IMG/VR virus record: IMGVR_UViG_3300011008_000125
DNA length: 47,741 nt
Origin: a virus
Reading direction: 5' to 3' (one strand)
Position numbers and translations under genes: made by a program. Shown piece after piece: positions 25,757 to 47,217 of the stretch (positions are counted from its first letter, which is position 1; every line of letters begins with the position of its first letter). The notes beneath the pieces are model-generated. The model saw only the letters and a program-made list of their open reading frames with translations. It did not search any database and was not told the DNA's origin.

Positions 25757-27649
25757 TTACCCCCTTATGAACACTTTCAAGTTCTTGCCGTTCACTTTCC
25801 GCTGAACCGACCTGAAGCCGGTTCTTTTGTTCAGCTGCTTGCTGAACACCGTGTTTGACATTGGCTGCATACCGTTGTCAGCACAGAATATCTGATACCG
25901 CCGGTACACTTCAGCCGTTGGCTGATTCAGGATGGTTCCGGCTTCATTTTCCTTCAGGAACCCAACCAGCGGGTTGTTTTCTTCTTCATATTCATCAAGC
26001 TGTTCCTGAACCTTACCTGACTGTGTGAATTCCTGATTTTCAATGACGCGCTGCAACCCGGCAACACCAAGCCTTATCAGGTATTCTGCCGCGTCCTGTT
26101 CCACAAGCTTATACTTAATCATTGCGTCATAGTCCGGGTCAGCCTTGCTGAAGGTGTGGTTGAACGGGATGATGACCAACCGCCTAAGTACAGCGCCGGT
26201 CTTGTCCCGCATCCGGGGTATATCGTTGGCGCTGAACAGCATCTTGACATACGGGTTGAATTCAAACGGGGTCATGCCCTTGTATTCACCCTTGATCCGG
26301 TTGCCGGTTGCCACCTTCTTGAACATTGCCACCTGTGACCCTTGCAAGAAATCATCACCGATGTCATCACCGATGTTGGCAAGCTTTCCAAAAATCATTG
26401 CTGTGTTGAAGCGGTCACCAAGTTCCTTCAGGTCAAGCGCGGCAATGTTCCGTTCACCAAGCACATTCTTCACCATGTCAAGGAACGTTGACTTGCCGTT
26501 TGCCCGGTCACCTGTCAGAATGAACGCCTTGCCCAATTCGTTGCGGCGGTAAAAGCAGTATCCAATGCATTCTTCCAGAAGTGACCGGATTGCTTCATCA
26601 CCGCAAGCAAGCTTGTTCAGCGTTTTGTCAGCAAGTTCACAGTACGCATCCGGCACATAGTCCCACGGTATCAGGTTGGTCAGCACCGTTTCCGGGCTGT
26701 ATGGCTGCATGGTTCCGGTTGTGATGTCCAGCACACCGTTCCTGAATCCGATGTACCGCGCATCTGACGGTTGCAGTTCATCAGCAATCAGCCGTAAATA
26801 CTTCATGACTTCATTGCGCTGTGTCTGCTTTAAGAATGGGATGGTCTGAATCATTTCAGCTTCAATCCGTTCCGGGTCTGAATCATACACGCCGTCACGG
26901 TATATATGCAGCTGGTCATTGATCTTCACCACATGACTGTTCTGCTTCATCCAGTGTGCGAACTTGTCAAACTGGAAGGTGCTGCCGATGAAGAACACCG
27001 GCTTTTGAAACGCGTCATCCCTAAGAATGGTTTCAAGTTCAGATTCTTCAAGCGGTTCCTTCAGCACATATTGGTTCATCAGCCGGATGCATTCACGGGT
27101 TTCTTCCACCGTCATGCCGTTGCCGGTCAGGGTTAAAATGTACTTAAACAGCGCGTCATTCCGTCCGTCCCCGGCTTCCATATCCACAAAATCAGCGGAT
27201 GTCTTGACCGGAATCAACCACTTTGGAAGTTCCTGATATTCCGCACCCGGTTCAATGTCCCATTCTATGAAGCGTTCCACGCCGCCAATCTTGATGACTT
27301 CATAGCTGGTTTTTGATCCCAGCTTAATGTCAGCCGTCAGACCGACCGCAAGCGGAACGTGCGTCCTGTTCCGGGTGACCGCGCCGGTCTTGTTCTTAAA
27401 CAGGAAGTGCTTTCCGCGTGTGGTCTGGTAGACGCGGCAGTTCAGCTGAAGCTGTTCAACAATGTTCATCAGTTTTTCAGCCTGTTCACCGTCATCTACG
27501 TCAATCAGGATGGTGTCATCAGCAAGCATCCCGGCATAACCGTCATAACCTTGCACCTGTTCAAGGGTACTGAACTGTGTACGCCCTCTAAGGGTTTCCA
27601 TGCTTCTTTTATCTTTAGTTCTGATATAACCTTTATACAGTGTTGTCAT
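25757..27649 (-). CDS. Primase-helicase (prim-pol N-terminus plus P4/D5-type SF3 helicase)
   Basis: ILIDVDD is in the N-terminal domain and the Walker A motif is LTGDRANGKST. The start was set at the ATG at 27649 (MTTLYKGY), which has a poly-G RBS. Confidence 0.8.
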   Translation of the reverse strand: MTTLYKGYIRTKDKRSMETLRGRTQFSTLEQVQGYDGYAGMLADDTILIDVDDGEQAEKLMNIVEQLQLNCRVYQTTRGKHFLFKNKTGAVTRNRTHVPLAVGLTADIKLGSKTSYEVIKIGGVERFIEWDIEPGAEYQELPKWLIPVKTSADFVDMEAGDGRNDALFKYILTLTGNGMTVEETRECIRLMNQYVLKEPLEESELETILRDDAFQKPVFFIGSTFQFDKFAHWMKQNSHVVKINDQLHIYRDGVYDSDPERIEAEMIQTIPFLKQTQRNEVMKYLRLIADELQPSDARYIGFRNGVLDITTGTMQPYSPETVLTNLIPWDYVPDAYCELADKTLNKLACGDEAIRSLLEECIGYCFYRRNELGKAFILTGDRANGKSTFLDMVKNVLGERNIAALDLKELGDRFNTAMIFGKLANIGDDIGDDFLQGSQVAMFKKVATGNRIKGEYKGMTPFEFNPYVKMLFSANDIPRMRDKTGAVLRRLVIIPFNHTFSKADPDYDAMIKYKLVEQDAAEYLIRLGVAGLQRVIENQEFTQSGKVQEQLDEYEEENNPLVGFLKENEAGTILNQPTAEVYRRYQIFCADNGMQPMSNTVFSKQLNKRTGFRSVQRKVNGKNLKVFIRG

Positions 27650-27669
27650 GGGTGTTACCCCCCCCACGG

Positions 27670-28167
27670 TTACAACAGCACCGCGAAGCGGTCAATTCTG
27701 TCTTTCATCCGTTTCCGGGATTCAAAATCATTCTTAGCATCACGCATTTCACGCTTCATGCGGTTCAGTTCTTCCTTAAATTCTTTCAATTCTTCATTGC
27801 GCTGTTCCAGCTGATTGCCTATGACCGCCCATTGCGGGTTGTTGCGCTTCAGCTTCTTTCTGTAGGCTTTCAGCTTGATGATGTAAGCAACAAGTTCATC
27901 CTTCTGCCGTTTGGCAAGGTTCACTTTGCTTTCCAGCGCCACATAGATGTTTGCTGCTTCCTTCTGTTTCGGTTTGTAGTCATCATTGAATTCTTCAAAG
28001 TATGCCTGAATCTGTTCAATGACTTCATCAACCTGTTCACTTTCCCTGACGCACTTAACCAGTTTCTTGAACTGTGCCGCTGTACAGTCTTTAAAAAACT
28101 GATCCAGATGCACCGTCATTTCACCCTTGCTTTCATGGTTCCATGAAAATTTAATTTCATCTGTCAT
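27670..28167 (-). CDS. Hypothetical coiled-coil protein
   Basis: The ORF was trimmed to MTDEIKFSWNHE, giving an ATGA overlap with the polymerase stop. Confidence 0.55.
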   Translation of the reverse strand: MTDEIKFSWNHESKGEMTVHLDQFFKDCTAAQFKKLVKCVRESEQVDEVIEQIQAYFEEFNDDYKPKQKEAANIYVALESKVNLAKRQKDELVAYIIKLKAYRKKLKRNNPQWAVIGNQLEQRNEELKEFKEELNRMKREMRDAKNDFESRKRMKDRIDRFAVLL

Positions 28168-30089
28168 ACACTCACCCCGAACGCCTTTAAGCGTTTTTTC
28201 ACCATATCTATGTACCATCCACGGTCAAGCCATGCCGGAACCTTTACCCCGTCCATTTTTTCATTCACCACCTTGCAGTGATCCGGGGTATTGCCGAACT
28301 TTTCAGGCTTTCCGCGCTTGCCACCGGCACGAAGCAGCCGCCCGTCATGAAGGTCATTGGAAGCAAACACCCGGTATGACTTATATGTGTACCTGTGCGT
28401 TTCCGGGTATTCATACCAATACTTGATGACCCTGACACCCTTCTGCCGCCGGACGGGTTCACACTGTTCATGTTCCACCCACTTGTAATTGTCTGACAAC
28501 TTGACCACCTTCTGAAACTGAATCAGGTCTTCACATTCATTGATGGTCTTTTCAACCGGCACACCGTGCGCCATGTATTCAACAAGCGCATTCCTGACTA
28601 TGGGCAAATCATTGTCCGTCCGGCTGGTTTCCTTCACATAGTCACCGCACCGTTCAATACCGCCGTCAATGTCCACCCAAAGGTAATTGTTCACGTCCTT
28701 CTGATAAATCTTTGCTATGCAGTCCAGCGCAAGCAGTATTTCACACTTGTCCGTGCTGCAACGGCATTCCCATTCATAACAGATGTCATCCAGCTGCCGG
28801 AACGCTTCATCAGTGTTTGGGACTTTGACAATCAGTCCGTCCGTGTTTGACTGAATCAGGATGAATCCGGGTATGGCTTCCAGATGTTCAATCAGGTCAA
28901 GCAGCATAAGCTGACCGTTGATGCACATACAGTTATTGTTCCGTGGGTCATATGCCGGGTTGGTTGCGTCCTTCATTGCCCCTGACAAGGCGTTCAGCAT
29001 CTTCTTATACGGCAGCTGTGCCTTTTTCCAATGCTTCTTTTCAGCCTTGTCCTGTGCCGCCTGTTGTTTCAGCTTCAGGGCTTTCCGGGTCTGGTACACC
29101 TTGTCATAATTCGTGTTGGTTGCCGATCTGGTTACCAAGTCCCACGCAAGCAGCATGGAAGGATAGTAGTTATTCACATCAACGTGGTATATAGCCCCTT
29201 CATAATGAACCGGCGTTGCAGCCGCACCGTGAAGACCGCCAAAACCAAAGGTGTGCGGGATACCGGCAACGTCCACGGTCAAAGACTGGTTGTAAAAATC
29301 CCTTTTTATCTGGAAGTCATCAACCGCAATCCCACGGTCACGCATGTCATAAATCGGCTGCATGGTGTACTGCATTTCCGTCCGCTTCTGTGCGAACCAT
29401 TCCACCACATGCTTATACTTTTTGATCCGCAAGCACGGAAGGAAAAAGAAATCAAATTCATCCGTGTACTTCTGCCGCTGACAACCCAGCACACGCGCCG
29501 TAATCCGGGCTTCAGAATCACCGATGTTGGAAAGGTTCACCTGATCCGGGAACGCCTGAACAATGCCTTGCATAGCGTTGAAATCATCTATCTTTTCCAT
29601 GAACACCTTTATGGTTTCTTCCACATCATGGGTGCAATAGAAGATGGTTTGTTCAATTTCTTCCGGGGTCAGCTTCCTGTCAATGTCAAAAGGCACTTCC
29701 GTTTCCCGGATGTCCGAACCAAGGAACGCTTCAAGGGTCTTCAGTCCAACCGGCGGGTTTGGCATGACATCATAGTTAATCATGGGTATCTGATTGAAAG
29801 CACTACTGAATTGCCACCCTTCACCGCCAAGAACAATGATGTAATCATTTATTTCTTTGGGATTCATCCCCAACAGGATGCCCTTGAAAATGTATTGGTC
29901 ATAGTGCTTGTTGTTGAAGCCCACCCAAATGCCTTTGCTGTTGGCTTCATAAAGTGCTTTCAGCCTTTCAGGGTCATTGACAATCACGTGCTTTTCTTCC
30001 TTGATAGGGTCAATGCCGACCGTCAGCCAATCGTATTTGAAAACTTCAAAATCATAAAATATCACGCCGTCACCGCCCTTCAGAAACAC
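28164..30089 (-). CDS. Family B DNA polymerase (phage type)
   Basis: The motif A-like sequence is HVDVNNYYPSML and the motif C-like sequence is QSNTDGLIV. An N-terminal exonuclease-like FYDFEV is present. The start is uncertain: either the GTG at 30089 or the GTG near 30068. Confidence 0.7.
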   Translation of the reverse strand: MFLKGGDGVIFYDFEVFKYDWLTVGIDPIKEEKHVIVNDPERLKALYEANSKGIWVGFNNKHYDQYIFKGILLGMNPKEINDYIIVLGGEGWQFSSAFNQIPMINYDVMPNPPVGLKTLEAFLGSDIRETEVPFDIDRKLTPEEIEQTIFYCTHDVEETIKVFMEKIDDFNAMQGIVQAFPDQVNLSNIGDSEARITARVLGCQRQKYTDEFDFFFLPCLRIKKYKHVVEWFAQKRTEMQYTMQPIYDMRDRGIAVDDFQIKRDFYNQSLTVDVAGIPHTFGFGGLHGAAATPVHYEGAIYHVDVNNYYPSMLLAWDLVTRSATNTNYDKVYQTRKALKLKQQAAQDKAEKKHWKKAQLPYKKMLNALSGAMKDATNPAYDPRNNNCMCINGQLMLLDLIEHLEAIPGFILIQSNTDGLIVKVPNTDEAFRQLDDICYEWECRCSTDKCEILLALDCIAKIYQKDVNNYLWVDIDGGIERCGDYVKETSRTDNDLPIVRNALVEYMAHGVPVEKTINECEDLIQFQKVVKLSDNYKWVEHEQCEPVRRQKGVRVIKYWYEYPETHRYTYKSYRVFASNDLHDGRLLRAGGKRGKPEKFGNTPDHCKVVNEKMDGVKVPAWLDRGWYIDMVKKRLKAFGVSV

Positions 30090-30678: not shown

Positions 30679-31902
30679 TTAGACATTTCTTACACGTCTG
30701 GTTCTGACACGCTGTTCCGGCGGGTTCATAGCACCTTCCACCGGGTTCTGACCTTCCTGTGCAATGCGCTTGATTCCTTCACCAAATTCCTGTTCAGAAA
30801 TCACCTGTGCGCCGTCCGGGATGGGGTCACCGGCGTGTTTCTTCACATAGTTGTCTGTTGCCGGGATGTAAAAATAGGTATCCACTTCACAGATGTTGGA
30901 CGGTTCCGGCGGCGTGACGGCACGTTCACGGCGTGTTCGGCGCGGCACGGGTTCCAGTTCCGGCGCTGGTACAGCGTCCATTGCCTTTTCAGCTTCTTCA
31001 AACGGTACACTGTCCCGGTCACCGGCAATTTCAGCAACCGCGTCCATCTGTGCGTGTGTGTATGCATCAACCTTTGCCTTGTTGTCAGCAATGATCTGTT
31101 CACGGGTCTTTTCCTGTGGCGGGTCACCGACTATTGCGCCGGTTCCCGTGTCCACTTCCGCAACCGTGTCCTTCTTCTTCTTTGACCGGGAACGTCTGCC
31201 GCTTTCAGCCGGTTTTTCAACCTGTGCGGCAGATGCAGCCGCGTCTTCAGCTTCCATTTCAGCATCAGACTTGAAGTCACCGACTTCATAATAATTGCGG
31301 ATCTTGTTAGCCACATAATTCAGGTCATTGTCAATGGCGTATGTGGGGAACATGCCCAAAGGTGACTTCACAGTGTCCTTGCCGCTGTTCTGTGTCAGGA
31401 AGTAGTATTTTCCTTCACTGACGGAAGTACGAAGCACCACCGTAAACAGTCCTTCAATGGTGATCTTTTCACGAAGCAGCTTACCAATCAGCTTCACCGT
31501 GGTCAGTCCGTTGTCAAGCGTTTCCAGATGGGTCATATAGGCAACAACCACGTCTTCCGGGATTTCCTTGCAGACTTCAATGATGTCAAAATAGTTTGCG
31601 CCAAAATCGTTGTACTTGTCCCATCCTGATTCTTTGATACGGTTCATGTACGGAACAGCAAGGATATACTGGACGTCATCAACCACAATCAGCTTCTTTC
31701 CGGCAGCTGCCTGTTCTTTCATGAACTTTGTGATGCTTCTGGAATCCGTCACGCTGTTCAGCATGGTGAACTTGCCTGAACCCTTGAACGGCAGCGCTTT
31801 CCCAACCGGGTTGACCACGGCGGTCTTTGCCGGGTCACAGTTCCGAAGTGACGTTGATTTCCCTGTTCCAGATTCACCCATAATCAAAAGTTTCTGTGCC
31901 AT
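30679..31902 (-). CDS. P-loop ATPase (AAA_24/Sak4-like) with charged C-terminal extension
   Basis: The Walker A motif is MGESGTGKST, and VVDD is Walker B-like. Confidence 0.65.
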   Translation of the reverse strand: MAQKLLIMGESGTGKSTSLRNCDPAKTAVVNPVGKALPFKGSGKFTMLNSVTDSRSITKFMKEQAAAGKKLIVVDDVQYILAVPYMNRIKESGWDKYNDFGANYFDIIEVCKEIPEDVVVAYMTHLETLDNGLTTVKLIGKLLREKITIEGLFTVVLRTSVSEGKYYFLTQNSGKDTVKSPLGMFPTYAIDNDLNYVANKIRNYYEVGDFKSDAEMEAEDAAASAAQVEKPAESGRRSRSKKKKDTVAEVDTGTGAIVGDPPQEKTREQIIADNKAKVDAYTHAQMDAVAEIAGDRDSVPFEEAEKAMDAVPAPELEPVPRRTRRERAVTPPEPSNICEVDTYFYIPATDNYVKKHAGDPIPDGAQVISEQEFGEGIKRIAQEGQNPVEGAMNPPEQRVRTRRVRNV

Positions 31903-32103
31903 TTATTTCACCCTGTCCTTTCTTAATCTTTCAAAGTTTGCCGCCATCTGTGCGCTGACGTTGCTGTGTCCGAACTTTGCAGCGCACTGGTTTCGCATGA
32001 CTTCACGCACAAGCCGCCTGTTGTAGACGGGAACCGGCTTGTACACCTTGCCCTTGTTTTCATTCACCATCTGTTTCACCACCTTCCTGTGTGCCGCCTT
32101 CAA
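31903..32103 (-). CDS. Small basic hypothetical protein
   Basis: 66-aa ORF in an operon context. Confidence 0.45.
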   Translation of the reverse strand: MKAAHRKVVKQMVNENKGKVYKPVPVYNRRLVREVMRNQCAAKFGHSNVSAQMAANFERLRKDRVK

Positions 32104-32986
32104 TCACGTGGGATGACCACATGTCAGCCATGTGAATAATCAGGTACAGCGGCGTTTCATGTCCCTTGATGCCATAATTGGCGGTCACATACAGCCCGTC
32201 ATGGAATCTGACGGCGTGTCTTTCTTCTTCCGTCAGGTCAATGAAGCGGTTGATGATTTCCAGTGACCTAACCGCGTGGTCATCCGGGTCAAGCAGTTCC
32301 TTGTTGTGCTTCCACGGCTTTGCTTCAGACACCTTGCCGGACTTCAGCACGTTGGGAATGTACATCTGCTTTCCACGGTCACCGCACTTGCCCACATCGT
32401 GAAGCAGCGCCGCGATAACCACTGAATCATGAATCTTGTTGTAATCAGCACCGCCATACAGCGCCACGCCAATCTTTTCAGCCGTGAACATGACGTTCAG
32501 GCTGTGTTCCGCAAGCCCACCTTCACCATTGCTATGGTTTGCGCCTGATGCCGGGGCTGTGAAAAACCCGATCTGTTCAAGGTAGTCACACAGAATGTCC
32601 ACACCTTCACGCTTTGTGCGCTTCAGGGCTTCCACAATCGTGCCTTTCACGTCATGCTTAACTTCCTGTGTCTGTTCCGCTGCAACGGTTTCAGCCTTTT
32701 TCTTTGTTGCCATAGTTTTGTTCATCCTTTCCTTGTGTTTATTCCAGATTGCGACCGCTTCATACATGAAGGTGGTTGCAATAAGTTCCTTGCCATCAAT
32801 CCACACGTGGTATACCGGCGCTTTATAGTAGGTGTGACCGCCTTGTTCATACGGCGTGGTGGTCACATACATTGCCGTGTCAGCTTCACCTTCCAGCCGC
32901 TTCACTTCCGTATGGAATTCTTCACAGCTTTTCACCCATAGTTCAAACTGTTCAGATGTACGCTGACTGAAAGTTTCTGTTCCCAT
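32060..32986 (-). CDS. HD-domain phosphohydrolase with N-terminal unknown domain
   Basis: LLHDVGKCGD is present, and HMADMW appears later. The start is uncertain because of a 55-nt overlap with the upstream gene. Confidence 0.6.
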   Translation of the reverse strand: MGTETFSQRTSEQFELWVKSCEEFHTEVKRLEGEADTAMYVTTTPYEQGGHTYYKAPVYHVWIDGKELIATTFMYEAVAIWNKHKERMNKTMATKKKAETVAAEQTQEVKHDVKGTIVEALKRTKREGVDILCDYLEQIGFFTAPASGANHSNGEGGLAEHSLNVMFTAEKIGVALYGGADYNKIHDSVVIAALLHDVGKCGDRGKQMYIPNVLKSGKVSEAKPWKHNKELLDPDDHAVRSLEIINRFIDLTEEERHAVRFHDGLYVTANYGIKGHETPLYLIIHMADMWSSHVIEGGTQEGGETDGE

Positions 32987-33339
32987 TCCTTACGCACCTT
33001 TCTGAAATGCTCATATTCCGGTAAATCAGCGGGTGAAATGCGCTCATACAGCGTCAGCTTGTGAATCAGCGCCGCGAAGATGTTGATGTCATCCGGGTAA
33101 AGCAGTATACCCACACCCCCGGCTTCATCCAGTTTCCGCAAGCTGTACAGCTGCAATTCTGCCGGTCTGCCGGTCTTACCCTTCAGTTCAACCCCGATGA
33201 AGCGCCCACGGCAGCACACCAACAGGTCAGGAATCCCGGCTTTTGTGTATGATCCACCGCCCCAATACTTGATGAACCAGCATCCTTCAGCATGAAGGAA
33301 TTTCTTCACCCGGTTTTCAAAATTCTTTTCATCAGCCAT
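32932..33339 (-). CDS. VRR-NUC domain nuclease
   Basis: GIPDLLVCCRGRFIGVELKGKTGRPAELQ matches the PD-(D/E)xK pattern. Confidence 0.7.
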   Translation of the reverse strand: MADEKNFENRVKKFLHAEGCWFIKYWGGGSYTKAGIPDLLVCCRGRFIGVELKGKTGRPAELQLYSLRKLDEAGGVGILLYPDDINIFAALIHKLTLYERISPADLPEYEHFRKVRKEWEQKLSVSVHLNSLNYG

Positions 33340-33544
33340 AACCGTCCACCTCTAAATCACTGACTTTTACGGTCTTCCGCAACTTCATGTATTCCTTCAG
33401 CGGCAGTCCCATTGAATCAGCCGCACATTTCAGCGCGTGTTTCTTGTTACCGAATGACCCCATGACCGGAACATACGGATAACCAGCCATGTGACAGTAA
33501 TACTGACCGCCTTTTTCTTTGCTGACCACATACGATAATTTCAT
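33332..33544 (-). CDS. Hypothetical small protein
   Basis: 70-aa ORF, translationally coupled. Confidence 0.5.
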   Translation of the reverse strand: MKLSYVVSKEKGGQYYCHMAGYPYVPVMGSFGNKKHALKCAADSMGLPLKEYMKLRKTVKVSDLEVDGYG

Positions 33545-34194
33545 GATTTCTTCCTTGCCCTTGAAAACTGATGGTTGCCAATCTTGATAAAATCGGTTCC
33601 GTTTACCTTGCCACGGCTGAAGAACACATAACCTTCCGGCAGAATAGTGTTCTGGTTGCCGTTTGCAATCACTTCCGCAATGGCATCCGTCTGTGTCTGG
33701 TTTGGTGTGTTATATGGTTTGTTCCGATACTCCCACGTTGCAAACTGATTTTTCTGTGACAGCACGTCATACACCGTGTCAGGGAAATCAGGTGACAGCA
33801 CCCGGTTAAATATGACTTCAACCACGGCTTTCTGACCGTCATACGGTTCATCCTGTGCTTCCATTGCAAGAATCAGACCAAGCAGCCTGAATTCTTCTGA
33901 AGTCATTTCCATTGCAATGTGTTCATAAAGGTTGAACGTTTCCCGTTCCGGTTCAGCGGCGGTTTCTTCCAACGTTTCCAACGCGTTGTGTGTGTTGGAT
34001 TCCGTTTCGCTTTCTATCTGGATGAAGAACGGCGGCGGTTCAACTTCCAGCGCATCAGCCTGTGACGGCACGTCCGTGGTTCCGGCGGCAGACTTACCGC
34101 AAAGGAAACCGATCATAAACACGATCATGCAAACGATGAACACAAAGAACTGAAACTTCAGCCGCCTTTTCACCCTAATTCTTGAATAAGTCAT
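33541..34194 (-). CDS. Membrane-anchored SleB-like cell wall hydrolase
   Basis: An N-terminal TM segment FQFFVFIVCMIVFMIGFLCG is present. The Hydrolase_2-like sequence is AMEAQDEPYDGQKAVVEVIFNRVLSPDFPDTVYDVLSQKNQFATW. Confidence 0.65.
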   Translation of the reverse strand: MTYSRIRVKRRLKFQFFVFIVCMIVFMIGFLCGKSAAGTTDVPSQADALEVEPPPFFIQIESETESNTHNALETLEETAAEPERETFNLYEHIAMEMTSEEFRLLGLILAMEAQDEPYDGQKAVVEVIFNRVLSPDFPDTVYDVLSQKNQFATWEYRNKPYNTPNQTQTDAIAEVIANGNQNTILPEGYVFFSRGKVNGTDFIKIGNHQFSRARKKS

Positions 34195-35533
34195 CTGTTA
34201 AATCCCTTCCTTCCTTCAATGCTTTTAGGTTCTTTACTTCAATACTGTTCTGTACCAGCGGATAGTAATAAAAACATGTCTGATCCTGACCAATCCTGTG
34301 CGTCCGCTTCTTTGACTGTTCCCATAGGTCACAGCTGCCTTTACCAAGCGGAAGCGTGAAATACACTGTGCGCCGTGCTTTCTGGAAGTTGCCGCCCATA
34401 GCACCCGCCTGATACTGAATGAAGGTGATGCTGTTGGATTCCTGTTCATAGGCGTTCAGGTCTTTGGTGCTGCCGTTCAGGATGCTGACCGGTCTGCCGA
34501 TTTCAGCGGCAATCCGCTTCAGGGCTTCCATTTCTGCCGTGAAGTTGTAGAAGACAATCAGCCGGTCTTCCGTGCTTTCAAAGATGTCCCGCATAGCTTT
34601 CAGCTTATCCTTGTGATACTGACCACACAGCTGCCGCGCATAAAGCGTTTTGGTCAGGTTGTTGTCACCTACCAGTTCCACCCGTGGTGTCACATCTTTA
34701 CCAAAGAAATCTGAATCATCATGGAATTCCTGAAAATTCATGGTGTCCAACATCAGGTATCCGCTGTCAATGAACCGCTTGTATTCTTTGGTAGGTTTCA
34801 ACATGATTTTCTGTTCAACCTGATCCGGCAGTGTCAGCACTTCTTCCGTTTTCTTGAACAGCGCACCATGTTCCGCAAGCTTCCGCTTCAGGTGGTCAAC
34901 GTTCTTATACCCGGTCACCACTTCCTGAAGGAACCCGGTTCCGTAATCCACCCAATCCGTGATGATGTATGACCCATAGAAAGCACGTTTTGAAATCTTC
35001 CAGCCCAACAGGTTGCACTGTGACCAAAGCTTTTCATATTTTCCGGCTGTTGGTGTGCCGGATAGAAGTATCACGCTTTCAGGCTTCATCTTCAGCACGT
35101 ACCGTGACCGCTTTGCCCGTTCATTGCTTATCAGTGAAGATTCATCCAGCATCAGGGTGAAGCCGGTCATATGACCGTAATATGAACGCCTGAACAACAA
35201 GTCATAATTGATAACCCCCACAATCATGCCGTCCGTGGTGATGCCTGATTCAGCGTGATTCTTGAATTCCATTGCTGACCGCTTCTTTGTCAGGTCAAAC
35301 GCCTGAATGTCAGGGTAATGGTCTGTGAAGTGCTGCAACCAGTCATCAATTTTGGATTTCTGACAGACAACCAGATTCACATAGTTGTTAAGCAGCCACA
35401 TCTTTTCAGACCCCATGAAGGTTTTCCCAAGACCCATATCATAAAAATATGCAACGTGGTTCTTGTCAGCTGTCAGGTCAAGCGCTTCAGCCTGATGGGG
35501 CATAAGCTTCAGCATATCCTGATTCCGGTACAT
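34175..35533 (-). CDS. SNF2-family helicase
   Basis: Motif I is DMGLGKT and motif II is MLDESS. A C-terminal helicase domain (HRIGQ) is present. Confidence 0.8.
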   Translation of the reverse strand: MYRNQDMLKLMPHQAEALDLTADKNHVAYFYDMGLGKTFMGSEKMWLLNNYVNLVVCQKSKIDDWLQHFTDHYPDIQAFDLTKKRSAMEFKNHAESGITTDGMIVGVINYDLLFRRSYYGHMTGFTLMLDESSLISNERAKRSRYVLKMKPESVILLSGTPTAGKYEKLWSQCNLLGWKISKRAFYGSYIITDWVDYGTGFLQEVVTGYKNVDHLKRKLAEHGALFKKTEEVLTLPDQVEQKIMLKPTKEYKRFIDSGYLMLDTMNFQEFHDDSDFFGKDVTPRVELVGDNNLTKTLYARQLCGQYHKDKLKAMRDIFESTEDRLIVFYNFTAEMEALKRIAAEIGRPVSILNGSTKDLNAYEQESNSITFIQYQAGAMGGNFQKARRTVYFTLPLGKGSCDLWEQSKKRTHRIGQDQTCFYYYPLVQNSIEVKNLKALKEGRDLTDDLFKN

Positions 35534-36708
35534 TCCCGGAAGATTTCAGCGTCAAAATTCGGCAGCGCCTTGATTTCATCACGGTCTTCATCATTCAGGC
35601 TGTCCCACCAAAGTTGTGCATTCTCTGATTCATCCAGCACTTTCATGTAACCTTCCGTGGTCTTATATTCCGGGTGTGCGTTCTTTTCATCATCCGTCAT
35701 TCTATAATCAGGAACCCATTCAACTACTTTTTTAGGAATCTTATTCATCAGGTAATATGCGCGGCTGTTCCACCAATCACGCAAAGTCCAGTCAGACGGT
35801 TTGTTGAACATGCTGATCTTTGGTTCAACAGTCATGAAGCATCCGTTATTAAAAGATGATTTGTTCCAGTCCCCGGTGTTCCTGTTCCCGGTGTTGCAGT
35901 TCCCGGTGTTGCAGTCCCCGGTGTTCCTGTTCCCGGTGTTCCAGTTCCCGGTGTTCCTGTTCCCGGTGTTGCAGTCCCCGGTGTTCCTGTTCCCGGTGTT
36001 GCAGTTCCCGGTGTTGCAGTTCCCGGTGTTCCTGTTCCCGGTGTTCCAGTTCCCGGTGTTCCTGTTCCCGGTGTTGCAGTTCCCGGTGTTGCAGTCCCCG
36101 GTGTTGCAGTTCCCGGTGTTCCAGTCCCCGGTGTTCCTGTTCCCGGTGTTGCAGTTCCCGGTGTTGCAGTCCCCGGTGTTCCTGTTCCCGGTGTTGCAGT
36201 CCCCGGTGTTCCTGTTCCCGGTGTTGCAGTTCCCGGTGTTCCTGTTCCCGGTGTTCCTGTTCCCGGTGTTGCAGTTCCCGGTGTTCCTGTTCCCGGTGTT
36301 CCAGTTCCCGGTGTTCCAGTCCCCGGTGTTCCTGTTCCCGGTGTTGCAGTCCCCGGTGTTCCTGTTCCCGGTGTTCCTGTTCCCGGTGTTCCAGTCCCCG
36401 GTGTTGCAGTCCCCGGTGTTGCAGCCTTTTTGTACTTCATCCCACGGGATTTCACGGATGATATGCAGCTTGTTGGTGCAATATTTAATGTTGTCATCTG
36501 TCACCACATCACCCAGCGCTTCAACTTCAGCAACCACCGTTTCATTCGGGTCATACGGATAAAAGTTGAACACTTGCGGCAGATGTTCACAAAAATGCAT
36601 TCCACGTTCACACACCCTTAAATCAACATCTTCAGTGAAGGTTTCACCCACCTGATACTGCTTATCACGGCATGTCCAATCTTTTTTAAATGCTTTATAT
36701 CCCTTCAT
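35509..36708 (-). CDS. Repeat protein: globular N-terminal domain plus 37 NTG(N/D)(R/C/W) pentapeptide repeats plus C-terminal domain
   Basis: 399-aa ORF. The N-terminus MKGYKAFKKDWTCRDKQYQVGETF resembles a widespread phage domain. The repeat block is encoded by the 15-bp array at 35866-36420. Confidence 0.8.
   Translation of the reverse strand: MKGYKAFKKDWTCRDKQYQVGETFTEDVDLRVCERGMHFCEHLPQVFNFYPYDPNETVVAEVEALGDVVTDDNIKYCTNKLHIIREIPWDEVQKGCNTGDCNTGDWNTGNRNTGNRNTGDCNTGNRNTGDWNTGNWNTGNRNTGNCNTGNRNTGNRNTGNCNTGNRNTGDCNTGNRNTGDCNTGNCNTGNRNTGDWNTGNCNTGDCNTGNCNTGNRNTGNWNTGNRNTGNCNTGNCNTGNRNTGDCNTGNRNTGNWNTGNRNTGDCNTGNCNTGNRNTGDWNKSSFNNGCFMTVEPKISMFNKPSDWTLRDWWNSRAYYLMNKIPKKVVEWVPDYRMTDDEKNAHPEYKTTEGYMKVLDESENAQLWWDSLNDEDRDEIKALPNFDAEIFRECTGIRIC
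35866..36420 (-). repeat. 37 x 15-bp in-frame tandem repeat array
   Basis: The plus-strand units are (cct|gca|cca)gt(t|c)cccggtgtt. The 555 nt divide into exactly 37 units. Confidence 0.95.
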
Positions 36709-36871
36709 GCTTTTCCCTCATTTTCTTATATTCATCTTCAAGGACTTCCACGGTATAAAACCATTTCCGGCAGTCCTTGCATGACCGCGCCCTTCTGGTT
36801 GTGCCGTTCACCTTCCGTGAATCAGCAACTTCCGTTCTAAGTGATCCGCACCGTGGGCATTTCATACCCAT
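36695..36871 (-). CDS. NrdR-like zinc-ribbon protein (no ATP-cone)
   Basis: MGMKCPRCGSLRTEVADSRKVNGTTRRARSCKDCRKWFYTVEV has a CxxC...CxxC pattern. The RBS is GGGGTGA. The start was trimmed from the track ORF. Confidence 0.55.
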   Translation of the reverse strand: MGMKCPRCGSLRTEVADSRKVNGTTRRARSCKDCRKWFYTVEVLEDEYKKMREKHEGI

Positions 36872-36872
36872 T

Positions 36873-37570
<698 letters not shown>

Positions 37571-37574
<4 letters not shown>

Positions 37575-38014
37575 ACCGCCACCCCTTCAATTTCAGCGAA
37601 CCGCCGCGCATTGATGAAATACACCCATGTGTTTTTAGCCGGGTTCTTGATTGCATACCCCCACGGAAACACGCCCTGTTGCAGTCCGCGCCTGACTGTG
37701 TTGTGGTTCATGTGCATCAGTTTGGCGACGGTATTTACATCAAGCGTCTGAATTCCGTCTTTGGCTGCGATCTTACGCGGCTGTGCGTCATCCCACCGGA
37801 AGTAATCAGGGTCAACACCAAGGGCTTCAGCAATTTCACGCTGCTTCTGTTCTGACGGCGTATTCTTGCCGGACAAATACTGACTGATAGATGCCTTACT
37901 GCAACCGGTCATCCCAACCACCTGTGTCTGTGTCAGGTTCAGTTCACACATAATGTTCAATAACGCGTCTTTGAATTTCATCATCCATTCCTTTCTTGTG
38001 GTCATTCTGCCCAC
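37571..38014 (-). CDS. HTH (XRE-type) DNA-binding protein with second C-terminal DNA-binding-like domain
   Basis: LTQTQVVGMTGCSKASISQYLSGKNTPS is the HTH segment. The likely true start is MMKFKD near 37984, which has the RBS AAAGGAA. Confidence 0.65.
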
Positions 38015-38017
38015 ATA

Positions 38018-38233
38018 TCAGTCAAAAAAAATTAGCTGTTGTTCTTCCGGCGTAAGGTTAAGCAGCCGGGTCAGCACCGCAATTTCAGATGCTACAAACT
38101 GCCGTTCACCTTTCAGTTTCGGAAGAAAACCCTGATAGGTCAGACCGCACTTTTCCGCGATATACTGAAGCTTATACCCGGAATCATCAATCTTCTTCCG
38201 TAAAAGTTCCATGCCTTTCATCTTGCCCGTCAT
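38018..38233 (-). CDS. Small HTH protein (XRE/Cro-like)
   Basis: 71 aa. The HTH-like segment is GYKLQYIAEKCGLTYQGFLPKLKGERQF. Confidence 0.5.
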   Translation of the reverse strand: MTGKMKGMELLRKKIDDSGYKLQYIAEKCGLTYQGFLPKLKGERQFVASEIAVLTRLLNLTPEEQQLIFFD

Positions 38234-42094: not shown

Positions 42095-43114
42095 ATGTCA
42101 CGAAGAAACCCGAACGGTTACGGATGTGTGACCAAGCTGAAGGGCAACCGGTCACGTCCGTGGGTGGTCAAGGTCACCGTCTATGACAGTGAAGGGAACG
42201 CCCATCAGCAAAATGTTGGATATGCGGCAGATGAAGCGGCAGCGCGTCAGATGCTTGCCGCCTACAACAATAACCCGTGGGACGCGAAACGCGAAACCAT
42301 CACGCTGGTTGAAGTGTTCAACCAATGGAAGGAACTAAAGCTTCCAAAAATGGAAAAAGGGTCACAACGCGCAATGCGTTCAGCGTTCAAGTATTGTTCA
42401 AAGTATTACGGCATGAAATACCGCGCACTGAAAACATTTCAGATGCAAGACACCATTGACAGCTGTGGTCACGGGTACAGCACCCAGCGCCAAATAAAAG
42501 CAATGTGGGGTCACCTTGACCGGTTTGCCTTTGAAATGGACATTGTTGACAAGATGTACAGCCAGCTGACCACAACAGACCCAATCACCGAATCAGGAAG
42601 AACACCCTTCACCCAAGAACAGATTGACGCGCTTTGGAAGCTGGAAGCCGCCGCCCCTGATCCGTGGGTTGAATCCGTCCTGATTTACATTTATACCGGC
42701 TTCAGGCTGTCAGAAATTCTTCAGCTTCCAATGGAACGGGTGAACTTTCAGGAATGGTACATCACAGCCGGGATTAAAACGGCAAACGGAAAGAACCGGA
42801 TTGTTCCGATCCATGACCGCATCAAGCCGTTCTTCACCGCCCGGAAAGATGACCCTTACCTTTTCACCCTGAATGGAAGGAAAATAGTGAAGTCCCAATA
42901 TTATGCGTTTTGGTATGAAGCGCTGAAAAAGATAGGTGCTGACAAGACACCGCATGAAGCGCGTCACACTTTTGAAACCCTGTTGGACAACGCCAACGGG
43001 AACCGGAAGTGTATTGATATGCTAATGGGTCACAAGTCCACGGACACCGGGAACCGGGTTTATAACCACAAAACCATTCAGCAATTACGGGATACCATAG
43101 CACTGTTAAAATGA
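42095..43114 (+). CDS. int: Tyrosine integrase
   Basis: TGFRLSEIL carries the catalytic R. The C-terminus HEARHTFETLL...LMGHKSTDTGNRVYNH matches the HxxR...H...Y pattern. Confidence 0.85.
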   Translation: MSRRNPNGYGCVTKLKGNRSRPWVVKVTVYDSEGNAHQQNVGYAADEAAARQMLAAYNNNPWDAKRETITLVEVFNQWKELKLPKMEKGSQRAMRSAFKYCSKYYGMKYRALKTFQMQDTIDSCGHGYSTQRQIKAMWGHLDRFAFEMDIVDKMYSQLTTTDPITESGRTPFTQEQIDALWKLEAAAPDPWVESVLIYIYTGFRLSEILQLPMERVNFQEWYITAGIKTANGKNRIVPIHDRIKPFFTARKDDPYLFTLNGRKIVKSQYYAFWYEALKKIGADKTPHEARHTFETLLDNANGNRKCIDMLMGHKSTDTGNRVYNHKTIQQLRDTIALLK

Positions 43115-43326: not shown

Positions 43327-44796
43327 TCAGTTGGGGAATTCGCCCACATCCTGAACACCGTTTTCATCCGTTACATACAGTCCGCATTCCAGCGGATGAC
43401 CGGCACGGGGTTCAAAGTAATACCACTTACCGTCAATCTGTTGCCACCCTGTGACGGCATATCCGTCCTTATTGAAATAGTACCTGTGACCGTTTATGTC
43501 CTTCCAGCACTTTGCAAGGTATGTGGTTTCAGAATCCGCATACCACCACCCGTTGCTGTCATGGTTCCATCCGGGTGTATATTTCTGACCAACAATGTCA
43601 TAGTCCGGCGCACCATACCCGGCAATGTCCGCATGGTCAAAAGAATATGCTTTCTTGCAGACCGCGCCGCCATTGGCAATGACAGCGTTTCCGCTGGAAG
43701 TGTTACCTTCAATAGTGTAAAAGATTCTCTGTTTTGTGTCCACCTGATAAATCAGCGCAATGTGGTGGATCCGCGTTGAATTCTTGAAGAATACCAGCCA
43801 ACCGGCTTCAGGAACGGAACCGGGATCATGCCAACGTCCGGCGGTCTTGAACCGTGCCGCCTGTGTGGGTGTATAGAAAGTCCACCCATCAGTTACCGCG
43901 TACAACAGCCTTTTGGCTGTTTCTTTGGTAAAAGCCCGGATGAAGCACCATACAAGGAAGCACAGACACCACGCCTGACCTTGAAATGCAGTCTTGATTT
44001 CATCCCAATACTTTGTGTAGTTGTTGCTTCCGGCGTTTGCCGTCTTGTCATACAGCGCCGGTTTGCTTCCGTCCTTCTTTTCAAGGTATCCTTCTTCTGC
44101 AAGCGCAATCTTTACAAGTGTGTTTTCCGCGCTCATATCATCACCGTTCCCTTCTTCAACCGCATGTTCTTCAATGAACTGCTTACATTTCAGATGCCGT
44201 CCCCAATATCGTGTGTCACCAACCTGATTGTCAGATGACGTGTCTTTCTGATCCGTGACCAAAGCAGCCATGATGTGGTCAAGGTCATAGTTGCCGCCCG
44301 TCCGGTCAAATATCCGTTCAGCGGCTTTCTTGCCGCCTAAGTGCCTGATTTCACAGTACATCATCTGTGCTTTCACGTCATCTGTGTACTTTTCCGCGCA
44401 ATCTTCAACAAATTCGACCATCAGCATTTGAAACAGCGCGTCCTGACATTGCCGTCCAATACTGGAAGAAATCAGTGTCAGCAGTGTTGCCCTTTGTTCA
44501 TCGGTTGGGTTCCAGCGTTCTTTTTCCCAATCATGACCAAGCATTTCAACAATGCTTCCGTCCGTGTCCACTTGCCACACAATTTCAGGCGCAACGTCAA
44601 AAATCATCTGAATAAGCCGTTTTGCTTCCGCGCCATAGTTTTGCGCCCAACCCAGCGTGATGGTGTGTTCCTTTTCGCTGTTGGTGTAAGGGGTCGCATA
44701 GGCGGCGTAATCACGCCGCCCATACACCTGACCGCCTGATTCAACAGCACCAATGACGTTTGTCAGAACGTCCATGTTCTGTTGATTCATGGTCAC
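43327..44796 (-). CDS. Multidomain endolysin (lysozyme/SLT-like N-terminus, CHAP, cell-wall-binding repeats)
   Basis: The N-terminus has GAVESGG. The CHAP-like region has GQAWCLCFLVWCF...HIALIY. The C-terminal repeats are WKDINGHRYYFNKDGYAVTGWQQIDGKWYYFEP. Confidence 0.8.
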   Translation of the reverse strand: MTMNQQNMDVLTNVIGAVESGGQVYGRRDYAAYATPYTNSEKEHTITLGWAQNYGAEAKRLIQMIFDVAPEIVWQVDTDGSIVEMLGHDWEKERWNPTDEQRATLLTLISSSIGRQCQDALFQMLMVEFVEDCAEKYTDDVKAQMMYCEIRHLGGKKAAERIFDRTGGNYDLDHIMAALVTDQKDTSSDNQVGDTRYWGRHLKCKQFIEEHAVEEGNGDDMSAENTLVKIALAEEGYLEKKDGSKPALYDKTANAGSNNYTKYWDEIKTAFQGQAWCLCFLVWCFIRAFTKETAKRLLYAVTDGWTFYTPTQAARFKTAGRWHDPGSVPEAGWLVFFKNSTRIHHIALIYQVDTKQRIFYTIEGNTSSGNAVIANGGAVCKKAYSFDHADIAGYGAPDYDIVGQKYTPGWNHDSNGWWYADSETTYLAKCWKDINGHRYYFNKDGYAVTGWQQIDGKWYYFEPRAGHPLECGLYVTDENGVQDVGEFPN

Positions 44797-45221
44797 CCTT
44801 CTTTCTGTTCGTTGTTTGCCTTTGTGGTCAGAAGGTCAATAGCCTTTGTGATGATAGGCGGCATGGGTATACCCATAAGACCGGCGTTTTCCACAATGCT
44901 GATGACCTCATTTGTGAAGAATCCTATAATCACCGCATCCTTCACATAGTCAATACCAAGGTAAACGTCAACACCCCGTGCAATCACCACGAACGCCAAA
45001 GTGAAGACCTTTCTGCAAAGTCCTTTCCACCCGGCGCGGCTTTCAAGCGCACCGTGCTGTGATTTTTTGGAAGCATGGAATACCCCGGCAACCACAAGAC
45101 CGCTGATGTAATCAGTAATCATTGCCATTACTAAGTATTGCAAAGCTGCCGACCAACCACCCAACAGTGACGCGACCGCACCACCAACAACTCCGATGAT
45201 GGTACAAATTTTCTGTTTCAT
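44793..45221 (-). CDS. Holin (Phage_holin_4/TcdE-like)
   Basis: 142 aa with several TM segments. ITDYISGLVVAG...NEVISIVENAGLMGIPMP is present. It overlaps the endolysin start. Confidence 0.8.
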   Translation of the reverse strand: MKQKICTIIGVVGGAVASLLGGWSAALQYLVMAMITDYISGLVVAGVFHASKKSQHGALESRAGWKGLCRKVFTLAFVVIARGVDVYLGIDYVKDAVIIGFFTNEVISIVENAGLMGIPMPPIITKAIDLLTTKANNEQKEG

Positions 45222-45485: not shown

Positions 45486-45755
45486 TTACGACATGGATTC
45501 ATACAGTTCCGCAAGGGCAAGCTGTGTGTCAGTCAGGTCTGCTTCCAGCGCCGCGTTCCTGTCATCCATCATCTTGATGTATTCATCCTTGTCATACTGT
45601 GTCAGGGTGTATTCATAGCCGTCAAAACCGCCATCCTGATCTTCCGCACCGGCTTCATGCACCGGCTGGATGTCAGACGCAATCCAAACTGAATATTCAT
45701 CAATGATCTTCTGTTCAGGCTGCGTGTTGCTGCGTGTGTTCGGATACACTTTCAT
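45486..45755 (-). CDS. Small acidic phage protein (XkdW position)
   Basis: The ORF was trimmed to MKVYPNTRSN with the RBS AAAGGTGGGA. The C-terminus is ALEADLTDTQLALAELYE. It overlaps the RT 3' end by 41 nt. Confidence 0.55.
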   Translation of the reverse strand: MKVYPNTRSNTQPEQKIIDEYSVWIASDIQPVHEAGAEDQDGGFDGYEYTLTQYDKDEYIKMMDDRNAALEADLTDTQLALAELYESMS

Positions 45756-46911
45756 TTTGTTTCCCACCTTTCTTTTTCTTGATGTGGTCAAGATAGTATT
45801 TGTCAGCGTATGGCTGAACAGGTGCTATGTACTTTTCAGTCAGCCGGAAGCTGTCACAGTGTATGACCCACCCTTTGTATGACGCGACAGAACACCATTC
45901 TGAATAATTCATTTCCTTGCCGGATTCCACCTTGACGCGTAAGGCGGTCATTTTCCGCTTCAGGGAATCACACGTTGATTTCCTCAACAGGGTGTAATTC
46001 CTGAAAATGCGGTAACCAACAAAGTCAACACCACGGATGAATGACGGGAAAATCTGGTAATTGTCCTTGATCCGTAAGTTCAGGTTGGTCTTCAGGTACA
46101 AATTCATGGATTCAAGCAGCTGTTGCAAGCGTTCCTTGCTGTCTGCAAATACACAAATGTCATCCATATAACGGTAATAATGCTTTACGTGCATTTCTTC
46201 CTTCATCCAATGGTCAAAGCCTGTCAGGTAAAGGTTCCCGTCATACTGTGAAAAATAATTGCCTATGGGAATGCCCAAGCCGTCAATGAACTGTTCACCG
46301 TTGCGCTGAACAATGGTGATGGGCTTTCCGCATGACTTGTAAAACGCAATGTTTTCTTCTGTTGCCGGACATGTGCTGATGCTGTCAATGATTTCATCAA
46401 TCACGGAAAGCAACGCCGGGTCTTTATACTTGCGCCTGAACTGCTTCTTCAGGATGTCATGGTCAATGGAAGGATAGAACTTCTTACAGTCTATCTTCAG
46501 GCAATAAAGCATTTCTTCCGGGCTGTGATCCACGGCGCGGCGTAACTTCCTGAATGCGTCATGTATGCCCTTGTTAGGAATCGCACTGTAAGAATCTTCT
46601 GTGAAGTAATCAAGCAGTGTCGGTTCAATGACCTGAAGGATTGCCCATTGCGCGATACGGTCAGGAAAGAACGGAAGCTTGTATATTTCACGTTCCTTCT
46701 TACCTTCCACCTTTTTGAACATGCCATATTCTGACGTGCGGTAATACCCGGTTTGCAGCATCCATTGCAATGCCGCAAGGTAATATGCCGGTCTTTTCTC
46801 AATCAGTTTTACTTCCGCATACCAGCCTTTGCCTTTCTTAGCGTTTTTATATGCAAGCATAAGGTTGTCCATGCTGCATATCTTTTCAAATAAGAACCCA
46901 TAGCGTTTCAT
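45715..46911 (-). CDS. DGR reverse transcriptase
   Basis: The N-terminus is MKRYGFLFEKICSMDNLMLAYKNAKKGK. PIGNYFSQ is the DGR-type [I/L]GxxxSQ motif. YRYMDDICVFADS is the YxDD active site. A cognate TR/VR pair lies upstream. A GTG at 46923 is an alternative start. Confidence 0.9.
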   Translation of the reverse strand: MKRYGFLFEKICSMDNLMLAYKNAKKGKGWYAEVKLIEKRPAYYLAALQWMLQTGYYRTSEYGMFKKVEGKKEREIYKLPFFPDRIAQWAILQVIEPTLLDYFTEDSYSAIPNKGIHDAFRKLRRAVDHSPEEMLYCLKIDCKKFYPSIDHDILKKQFRRKYKDPALLSVIDEIIDSISTCPATEENIAFYKSCGKPITIVQRNGEQFIDGLGIPIGNYFSQYDGNLYLTGFDHWMKEEMHVKHYYRYMDDICVFADSKERLQQLLESMNLYLKTNLNLRIKDNYQIFPSFIRGVDFVGYRIFRNYTLLRKSTCDSLKRKMTALRVKVESGKEMNYSEWCSVASYKGWVIHCDSFRLTEKYIAPVQPYADKYYLDHIKKKKGGKQNESVSEHTQQHAA

Positions 46912-46923
46912 TTTTGTATGCAC

Positions 46924-47217
46924 TTCACCGAATCTTCAACAAGTCAGCCCTACGTGCTGACAACCTACAAACACAGTTTAGTAATTCAACCCGAAGGTCT
47001 TAATGTATTGGCAAGCGCCACGGCAACAGTTCCGGCAGTATATTTTAAACCGCCCACGTTTTCAGGTAGGTCTTACCGTGTAGGCGGTTTTGTGCATGTA
47101 CTAAGTGCCTGCTGATATTCCGATTACGATTACCCGAACTGTTATTCAAATTCAGATAGAACGTGCCTGATTTCGTGCCATTATTCCAATTCGTGCTACA
47201 TTTAACAACGTGCTATT
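46924..47217 (-). ncRNA. DGR template RNA (TR plus structured spacer up to the RT start)
   Basis: The TR is followed on the minus strand by aaaccgcc...ggcggttt/cacg...cgtg nested stems (47047-47090). A UUCG-loop hairpin (gaccTTCGggtt) and a gtcagc/gctgac hairpin follow. Confidence 0.6.
47099..47217 (-). repeat. DGR template repeat (TR)
   Basis: It gives a gap-free 119-nt alignment to the VR at an offset of 246. It is non-coding (TAG in the VR frame) and rich in AAY codons. Confidence 0.9.

Follow-up and report, generated by a model that had tools for sequence, protein, structure and literature searches.

The question raised by the viral sequence IMGVR_UViG_3300011008_000125 (IMG/VR; 47,741 nt, the whole of which is referred to here as the window) is what kind of protein segment is specified by a strictly periodic array of 15-bp repeats at positions 35866-36420, and what role such a segment might play. 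The array lies within a minus-strand open reading frame (ORF; 35509..36708) encoding a protein of 399 amino acids, the target, of which it occupies residues 97-281 as repeats of NTG(N/D)(R/C/W). An original prediction made from the sequence alone proposed a beta-helix like that of the DNA mimics Qnr and MfpA, with a host-takeover or anti-restriction role. On its profile matches the locus is instead a member of a known, catalogued and functionally uncharacterised family, DUF7666-Pentapeptide_2. The explanation preferred here, to which we would give about an even chance, is that the array is an ordered repeat scaffold that carries its own C-terminal cap and is mounted on an effector-like module conserved at the N-terminus, with whole-unit slippage causing both the length and the surface of the array to drift.

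The family assignment is carried by three profile matches. Residues 1-93 match the 95-position profile of PF24703 (DUF7666) at E = 7.9e-29 (100.4 bits against a cut-off of 27), the array matches PF01469 (Pentapeptide_2) in nine stretches at E = 1.8e-53 (178.6 bits, cut-off 26.4), and the protein matches PHROG 14105 (E = 4.5e-148, 493 bits), a family annotated as function unknown. The original prediction had pointed to hidden Markov model (HMM) searches of pentapeptide and DUF families; these returned PF01469 and DUF7666, and no PF00805-type match at E <= 1. An NCBIfam scan of the target gave nothing meaningful. In a collection of 5.8 billion proteins more than 7,800 homologues were recovered at E <= 1e-5; the best 120 of these all combine PF24703 with PF01469, and where a name is given it is either 'pentapeptide repeat-containing protein' or 'DUF7666 domain-containing protein'. 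At least 447 loci in IMG/VR encode family members. No publication was found on DUF7666, PF24703, PHROG 14105 or the unit sequences.

Within the target the modules are arranged as a beta-rich N-terminal DUF7666 domain (36421..36708, minus strand; residues 1-96, from Pfam and AlphaFold2 (AF2)), the pentapeptide array, and a C-terminal alpha/beta domain (35509..35865, minus strand; residues 282-399 plus the stop codon), which was delimited by AF2 and conservation. With an alignment of 57 sequences, AF2 assigned residues 1-98 and about 285-399 predicted local distance difference test (pLDDT) values mostly above 90; the range was 91-97 over the DUF7666 domain and about 77-96 over the C-domain. The C-terminal 118 residues matched no Pfam family. 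They open with the degenerate units NKSSF NNGCF and close with a conserved PNFDxxIFxxxTGI, and the domain always follows an array, including in proteins that lack DUF7666. The earlier description of a coding pentapeptide array set between two globular domains was therefore sound, both ends being confidently modelled and the array matching PF01469.

At the DNA level the array comprises 555 nt, or 37 units of 15 bp with zero indels, by direct reading and by script; Tandem Repeats Finder (TRF) places the repeat at 35862-36424, also with 0% indels. Just five DNA unit types are found among the 37 units and synonymous variation is absent: AACACCGGGAACAGG encodes NTGNR (15 copies), AACACCGGGAACTGC NTGNC (eight), AACACCGGGGACTGC NTGDC (seven), AACACCGGGGACTGG NTGDW (four), and AACACCGGGAACTGG NTGNW (three). 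The array length, the unit types and their counts are those given in the original prediction, as is the presence of six open frames, there being zero stops in any frame across the array. The coding frame is fixed because both flanking domains have homologues, in agreement with the frame originally chosen. The GC content of the array is 62% against 48% for the window, and it employs GGG for Gly and AGG for Arg, codons that in the other genes of the window specify only 12% of Gly and 13% of Arg residues. Neither a 75-bp super-period reported by TRF (p = 0.08) nor a 17-unit offset exceeded a null obtained by shuffling units.

DUF7666 is evidently not tied to this repeat. When the N-domain alone was searched against 1.84 billion cluster representatives, 3,682 clusters (50% identity) were recovered at E <= 0.001, and among the 150 best representatives DUF7666 is nearly always N-terminal. 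Pentapeptide_2 follows it in 76 of the 150; the partners in the remainder are LRR_5, LRR_8, HEAT, LRV, MORN_2, FNIP, DUF4116 and DUF6273, and some representatives carry hydrophobic tails or nothing recognisable. Structural matches in BFVD include DUF7666 proteins of Pseudomonas, Rheinheimera and Lactobacillus phages, and also giant-virus proteins named as ankyrin-repeat proteins, which themselves have no DUF7666 annotation. The modules separate in both directions, since Roseobacter phage CRP-811 gp20 and two further loci (L086 and L106) encode the array and C-domain without DUF7666, and Levilactobacillus phage ENFP1 encodes DUF7666 without the array. Judged by these arrangements, DUF7666 is an independent module, and the array plus C-domain constitutes one evolutionary unit. 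In other DUF7666 proteins the slot taken by this unit is filled by ordered solenoid repeats, which favours a scaffold or binding surface over a random linker.

A few DUF7666 cluster representatives read the repeat differently. In P0130, P0131, P0158, P0160 and P0264, DUF7666 is followed by an array translated in another frame (QDITTQDITT, AVIATAVIGT and IRAIAIRAIS being examples), and in P0131 the normal frame of the C-domain is regained after the alternative-frame array. As such arrays are open in all frames, frameshifts or sequencing errors yield long alternative-frame products rather than truncations.

The number of units changes quickly between related phages. Across relatives it spans 7-42, the upper figure being the IMG/VR maximum, and the longest uninterrupted run in the best 120 homologues is 8-39 units. 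A related locus, L078, which is syntenic with the window (holin, endolysin, integrase, helix-turn-helix (HTH), DUF6378, HTH, target and SNF2 in common order) and 77-97% identical to it in DNA, has 20 units against the 37 of the window. Two prophages of different mouse-gut bacteria (L081 and L095) have 35 and 7 units, respectively, within approximately 9 kb of flanking DNA that is 94-98.7% identical. Seven Rheinheimera phage isolates have 25, 26 or 27 units (gene lengths of 963, 978 and 993 bp); their C-domains are identical in all seven and their N-domains in six of seven, and their arrays differ through single-unit indels and single-unit substitutions. The array thus changes faster than its flanks and does so in whole 15-bp steps between near-identical phages, so that the expansion and contraction foreseen in the original prediction is seen among relatives.

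Two processes appear to act on the sequence of the array. Among close relatives each array contains 3-8 DNA unit types with fixed codons, that is, its DNA is homogenised. In distant arrays nearly all DNA units are distinct, yet N1 and G3 are kept in an unbroken five-residue register over 21-30 units. The same peptides are also written in different codons: the window codes its units AAC-ACC-GGG with Arg as AGG, whereas gp041 of a Rheinheimera phage, which has a gammaproteobacterial host, codes NTGNR, NTGNW and NTGDW with AAT-ACT-GGT and Arg as CGG or CGA, and Roseobacter phage CRP-811 has NTGxx units together with the C-domain. The motif is therefore retained with different codons in phages of Clostridia, Gammaproteobacteria and Alphaproteobacteria, which indicates that the peptide is under selection.

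A further constraint concerns positions 4 and 5 of the unit. The original prediction remarked that the combination D-R never occurs, which is true of the array in the window; D-R is present in relatives. For the window alone the absence has a hypergeometric P of 0.0008, a value that assumes independent units when the units are in fact mutual copies. Depletion of D-R over the best 120 homologues is better evidence: DR was observed 152 times against 390 expected and NR 700 times against 380 expected, and over this set positions 4 and 5 covary, Asn going with Arg, and Asp with Trp, Cys or Tyr. An array of metal-binding cysteines was considered and is unlikely, as Cys at position 5 is replaced by W, Y, F or S in many relatives; many are nearly free of Cys, which is accordingly not essential.

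On whether the array is ordered, the structure predictions point in different directions. In the AF2 model built with the alignment, residues 99-279 have pLDDT values of 25-37 and no secondary structure, and in a single-sequence run the array again lacks secondary structure at a pLDDT of about 24, the repeat values across the two runs being 23-37. This disordered output is notable because AF2, when given perfect repeats, is documented to be prone to modelling beta-solenoids with undue confidence (PMC11795689). Four predictors agree that PF01469 repeats form a beta-solenoid (PMC11795689), with a coil of ten residues (PMC9663297), although these published predictions concern mycobacterial NxGxG units, in which the fifth residue is Gly as against R, W or C here. 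The array is also highly hydrophilic, with no hydrophobic core position and a normalised Kyte-Doolittle hydropathy of 0.298. The order of unit types over 173 arrays showed no periodicity at any lag, lag-2 and lag-4 included, and unit counts in the best 120 homologues showed no even/odd bias; hence no face-specific pattern of the solenoid type was seen. The gene neighbourhood, for its part, is only partly conserved across 86 dereplicated related loci. Apart from the published solenoid predictions, these observations weigh against an ordered scaffold. The original prediction had itself named a disordered repeat in a structure prediction as evidence against its solenoid, and, as far as AF2 goes, that is the outcome. 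A charge-hydropathy plot was not discriminating, the confidently folded end domains also falling on the 'unfolded' side.

The main rival is accordingly a disordered spacer: an Asn/Gly/Thr-rich linker whose sole role is that of a variable-distance tether, its sequence upheld mainly by DNA homogenisation. The low AF2 confidence in both runs, the very low hydropathy, the apparently random order of units across arrays and the wide tolerance of length, from 7 to 42 units, are all what such a linker would lead one to expect. Conservation of the N1/G3 register in different codons nevertheless argues against a mere disordered linker: N-T-G-(N/D)-(R/W) units are kept in the phages of several bacterial phyla despite their different codons, and diverged arrays hold N1, G3 and the unbroken register where homogenisation of DNA is not at work. 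The covariation of positions 4 and 5 counts against it too, as do the ordered solenoid repeats joined to DUF7666 elsewhere and the degenerate, cap-like units with which the C-domain begins. On this balance we regard the spacer as a real possibility, and a clearly less probable one than the ordered scaffold.

The ordered-scaffold explanation would work as follows. The array is the central module of a phage protein that is cytoplasmic and belongs to the DUF7666-Pentapeptide_2 family, and it would form an elongated structure, probably a non-canonical PF01469 solenoid rather than the quadrilateral helix of Qnr and MfpA. It may space the end domains, or its positions 4 and 5 (N-R versus D-W/C) may form a fast-changing surface that is offered to a partner from the host or the phage. 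Drift in the length of the array would come from replication slippage or unequal recombination, and the protein would probably be made along with the early and replication genes of the phage.

A stronger version of the surface proposal holds that the array is a fast-evolving recognition surface whose diversity is driven by an arms race; the pairings of N/D with R/W/C/Y would act as a combinatorial code for binding either a protein of the host or a nucleic acid, and DUF7666 would be the effector so directed. Variation is confined to positions 4 and 5, which covary and differ between near-identical phages; tandem or multiple paralogues are encountered within single phage genomes; and DUF7666 pairs with many kinds of binding repeat. 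A weak fold likeness of one globular domain points in the same direction. When the whole AF2 model was compared with the PDB by Foldseek, nothing was found at E <= 0.001, and the best match, below significance, was the rifampin ADP-ribosyltransferase Arr (9iaf; E = 0.028, prob 0.96, TM 0.38, rmsd 7.6), followed by the inactive PARP domain of PARP13 at E >= 1. These matches belong to the whole model, are assigned to neither domain and are kept as a lead only. They are without sequence support: against PDB sequences the best hit of the N-domain profile was a glutaminase at E about 1, the C-domain profile aligned its tail with the Sec63 helix-loop-helix of Brr2 at a non-significant E of about 1, and neither search returned an ADP-ribosyltransferase. 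Unit order shows no conserved pattern even in close relatives, and neutral slippage explains the variation equally well. We consider a recognition code unlikely.

DUF7666 itself does have features expected of a functional centre. Across the 150 cluster representatives K5 and H38 are invariant and C13, C33, G36 and C40 show conservation of 90% or more, C33 being lost in the Rheinheimera protein; a site of metal binding or of catalysis is suggested by this pattern. It would be attractive to see in DUF7666 a compact catalytic or metal-binding effector that viruses, phages and giant viruses alike, direct at targets in the cell by means of interchangeable scaffolds, with the array as a minimal solenoid providing a recognition surface that evolves fast in an arms race of phage and host, but as a complete proposition this is speculative and has little probability in our estimation.

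The proposal from which this analysis started, that the array is a Qnr/MfpA-like beta-helix acting as a DNA mimic against restriction or other DNA-targeting host defences, fares worse still. The five-residue period is strict, the gene lies in the early region with an SNF2 helicase and a DNA methyltransferase close by, and designed pentapeptide proteins in the PDB are weakly alike (E = 0.028-0.48, non-significant). Known DNA mimics are strongly acidic. The array, in contrast, contains 15 Arg and 11 Asp, giving a net charge of +4 and a pI of 8.4, and over the best 120 homologues its net charge averages -1.5 (range -14 to +9); the pI of the whole protein, 5.2, is unremarkable. The match is to PF01469, with no PF00805-type family at E <= 1, each unit has Gly instead of Leu or Phe at its centre, neither AF2 run produced a helix, lag-4 periodicity is absent, and the predicted PF01469 coil is of 10 residues rather than a 20-residue quadrilateral (PMC9663297). 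The fold search of the PDB returned no pentapeptide protein, and membership of the canonical pentapeptide proteins was rejected; the original prediction had been right to observe that the consensus departs from the canonical A(D/N)LXX. Nor did the suggested anti-restriction or host-takeover role find support, for no family among the PADLOC models matches the target, no literature on the family was found, and SNF2 adjacency holds at 21 of the 86 related loci. DNA mimicry is thus very improbable.

There remains the assembly itself. Bases 1-99 of the window are identical to bases 47643-47741, giving a circular (or terminally redundant) contig and a genome of 47,642 bp; the window is a complete phage genome, and the 99-bp terminal overlap implies assembly at k=99. 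The longest exact repeat inside the array is 79 bp and all of its 99-mers are unique, so the array is resolvable by such an assembly, the unit count of 37 being the value in the assembled contig rather than in reads. That the array is an artefact, a mis-resolved repeat or a chimera, is scarcely credible: the window is a short-read-style contig, several relatives' contigs break within their arrays and the exact 399-residue protein has no match among the 5.8 billion proteins, but against this stand the unique 99-mers, the short internal repeats, the reading frame kept throughout, and arrays of 35-42 units in independent relatives, isolate genomes included.

Six contigs of relatives, from isolate genomes and metagenome-assembled genomes (L089, L091, L102, L104, L105 and L107), start or stop inside the pentapeptide array. 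Unit counts from short reads therefore need caution, and database counts may be under-estimates.

The gene belongs to a temperate siphovirus-like phage of gut Clostridia. Relatives of the target gene occur in gut Clostridia such as Lachnospiraceae, Oscillospiraceae, Faecalibacterium, Roseburia, Bariatricus and Acetatifactor, and no deposited phage matched the window at the nucleotide level. The integrase is the only long ORF with a family assignment (PHROG, Pfam) that is not on the minus strand. The assigned ORFs include the genes for the tape measure (8509-11379), a minor head protein or head morphogenesis protein (17865-19898), portal (19895-21397), large terminase (21492-22820), primase (25757-27667), DNA polymerase (28164-30089), a Sak4-like annealing protein (30679-31902) and an HD-domain protein (32060-32986). 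These are followed by a 135-residue endonuclease (32932-33339; PHROG 93, the label VRR-NUC having been given by eye and by no tool), a cell-wall hydrolase-like protein (33541-34194; Pfam Hydrolase_2, SleB type), the SNF2 helicase (34175-35533; Pfam SNF2-rel_dom, PHROG 62 DNA helicase) and the target gene (35509-36708). Beyond it lie an NrdR-like zinc ribbon (36695-36871; Pfam Zn_ribbon_NrdR, and PHROG 10675 for the 58-residue version), the DNA methyltransferase (36873-37574; PHROG 757, E = 7e-53), an HTH regulator (37571-38014) and a small ORF (38018-38233), a putative HTH protein by sequence reading alone, with no library scan. The integrase (42095-43114) is on the plus strand; a CHAP/choline-binding endolysin (43327-44796), a holin (44793-45221) and a reverse transcriptase (45715-46923) return to the minus strand.

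The SNF2 gene is directly downstream of the target gene, its first ATG overlapping the 3' end of the latter by 25 bp. Directly upstream is the zinc-ribbon gene, whose 3' end overlaps the target ATG by 14 bp, and the target lies two genes downstream of the methyltransferase, so that the placement beside a helicase and a methyltransferase reported in the original prediction is accurate. No terminator-like site was detected on the minus strand between 38264 and 33000, and together with the overlapping starts and ends of the neighbours this makes 'early/replication operon' a fair description. Across the 86 related loci a second family member lies in tandem (within 3.5 kb) at 27, an SNF2 helicase downstream at the 21 already mentioned, a Dcm-type methyltransferase upstream at 19, the same HTH regulator as that of the window upstream at 18, and a homologue of the endonuclease gene at 32932-33339 downstream at 13. 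In lytic phages the family gene is found among small early hypothetical genes. The pattern is consistent with early expression and points to no particular function.

Several observations on the surrounding genome can be recorded. Two or three DUF7666-pentapeptide paralogues are present in some phage genomes (L014, L030 and L077 on one 57-kb contig; L013, L041 and L061). The zinc-ribbon ORF in its full extent (36695-36994, minus strand; 99 residues) overlaps the methyltransferase gene by 122 bp, and the Zn_ribbon_NrdR match covers residues 44-83; its true start is probably the internal ATG at 36871 (about 58 residues), overlapping the methyltransferase stop codon. The methyltransferase gene (36873..37574, minus strand) contains a perfect (GT)17 run at 37366-37399, read as a Thr-His repeat (THTHTH...). 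A change in length by a single GT would put the gene out of frame, so it looks like a slipped-strand phase-variable methyltransferase gene. In the relative L078 both the methyltransferase and the zinc-ribbon genes are absent. The hydrolase-like gene at 33541-34194 (minus strand) encodes a hydrophobic N-terminal segment and sits among the replication genes, a long way from the lysis cassette; it has no homologue among 77 IMG/VR loci, and in 12 related loci its place is taken by a different hydrolase-like gene (229 residues, its identity not derived from a library scan).

The phage also carries a diversity-generating retroelement, with the reverse transcriptase at 45715-46923, a template repeat at 47100-47213 and a variable repeat at 47346-47459. 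The two repeats are 114 nt each and 79% identical, every mismatch within them falling at an adenine of the copy proximal to the reverse transcriptase, and the variable copy lies 3'-terminally in a minus-strand gene crossing the contig origin, probably a tail-fibre-like target. A link between this element and the pentapeptide array was considered and rejected, because invariant AAC codons and G/C variation misfit adenine mutagenesis; the element has its own, separate pair of repeats.

As a single locus the target is ordinary, its family being already present in Pfam, PHROGs and NCBI. The family merits attention for its size, since its close homologues number more than 7,800 and DUF7666 itself falls into 3,682 clusters at 50% identity, and for its distribution, being common in the Clostridia prophages of human and animal gut and present in marine phages too. 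The domain-swapping of DUF7666 among Pentapeptide_2, LRR, HEAT and MORN repeats, with its structural matches to giant-virus ankyrin proteins, provides a testable hypothesis. The array is a test case both for whether PF01469 pentapeptides form the 'shortest possible' beta-solenoid and for the behaviour of AF2 on near-perfect repeats. Short-read assemblies are broken by such arrays, and the arrays differ even between near-identical phages; they are possible strain markers and a source of annotation errors.

Comparison with known systems places the target closest to other DUF7666-Pentapeptide_2 proteins, such as those of Velocimicrobium porci, Clostridium butyricum, Agathobacter rectalis and Rheinheimera phage Barba (gp041). 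These have the same three modules, NTG(N/D)x units, the C-terminal PNFD and a phage or prophage location, their flanking domains are 45-80% identical to those of the target, and the target stands apart from them only by its unit number, which is 37 where 15-25 is typical, and by the proportions of its unit types. The PPE-MPTR proteins of mycobacteria (PF01469, NxGxGNxG) share the five-residue period, Asn at position 1, Gly at position 3 and the HMM match at 178.6 bits. The PF01469 consensus NxGxG has Gly also at position 5, whereas that position is R, C or W in the window and R, W, C, Y or F in the best 120 homologues. PPE-MPTR proteins are moreover secreted mycobacterial proteins, while the target is a cytoplasmic phage protein with unrelated flanks, no PPE domain and no solenoid from AF2, and the likeness may be convergent.

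The canonical PF00805 proteins (Qnr, MfpA and AlbG), which form a right-handed quadrilateral beta-helix, resemble the target in their five-residue period and Asn/Asp-rich units; the target, however, has no match to their HMM, no central hydrophobic residue, no acidic surface and no predicted helix. Rheinheimera phages hold a separate PF00805 gene (gp043 in Barba28A; 5672-6121 in L079) two genes downstream of the DUF7666-PF01469 gene, which indicates that the two kinds are distinct. The acidic DNA mimics Ocr and ArdA are likewise products of early phage genes, ArdA being elongated and repeat-like. They are strongly acidic as against the neutral to basic array of the target, and no similarity of sequence or fold to them was found. 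In its mode of change the array resembles coding minisatellites (in-frame variable-number tandem repeats), with gain and loss of whole units between near-identical genomes, homogenised DNA and a reading frame that is kept. It differs from them in that its repeat shows conservation between phyla at the level of the peptide, and in that it belongs to a cytoplasmic phage protein rather than to a surface antigen.

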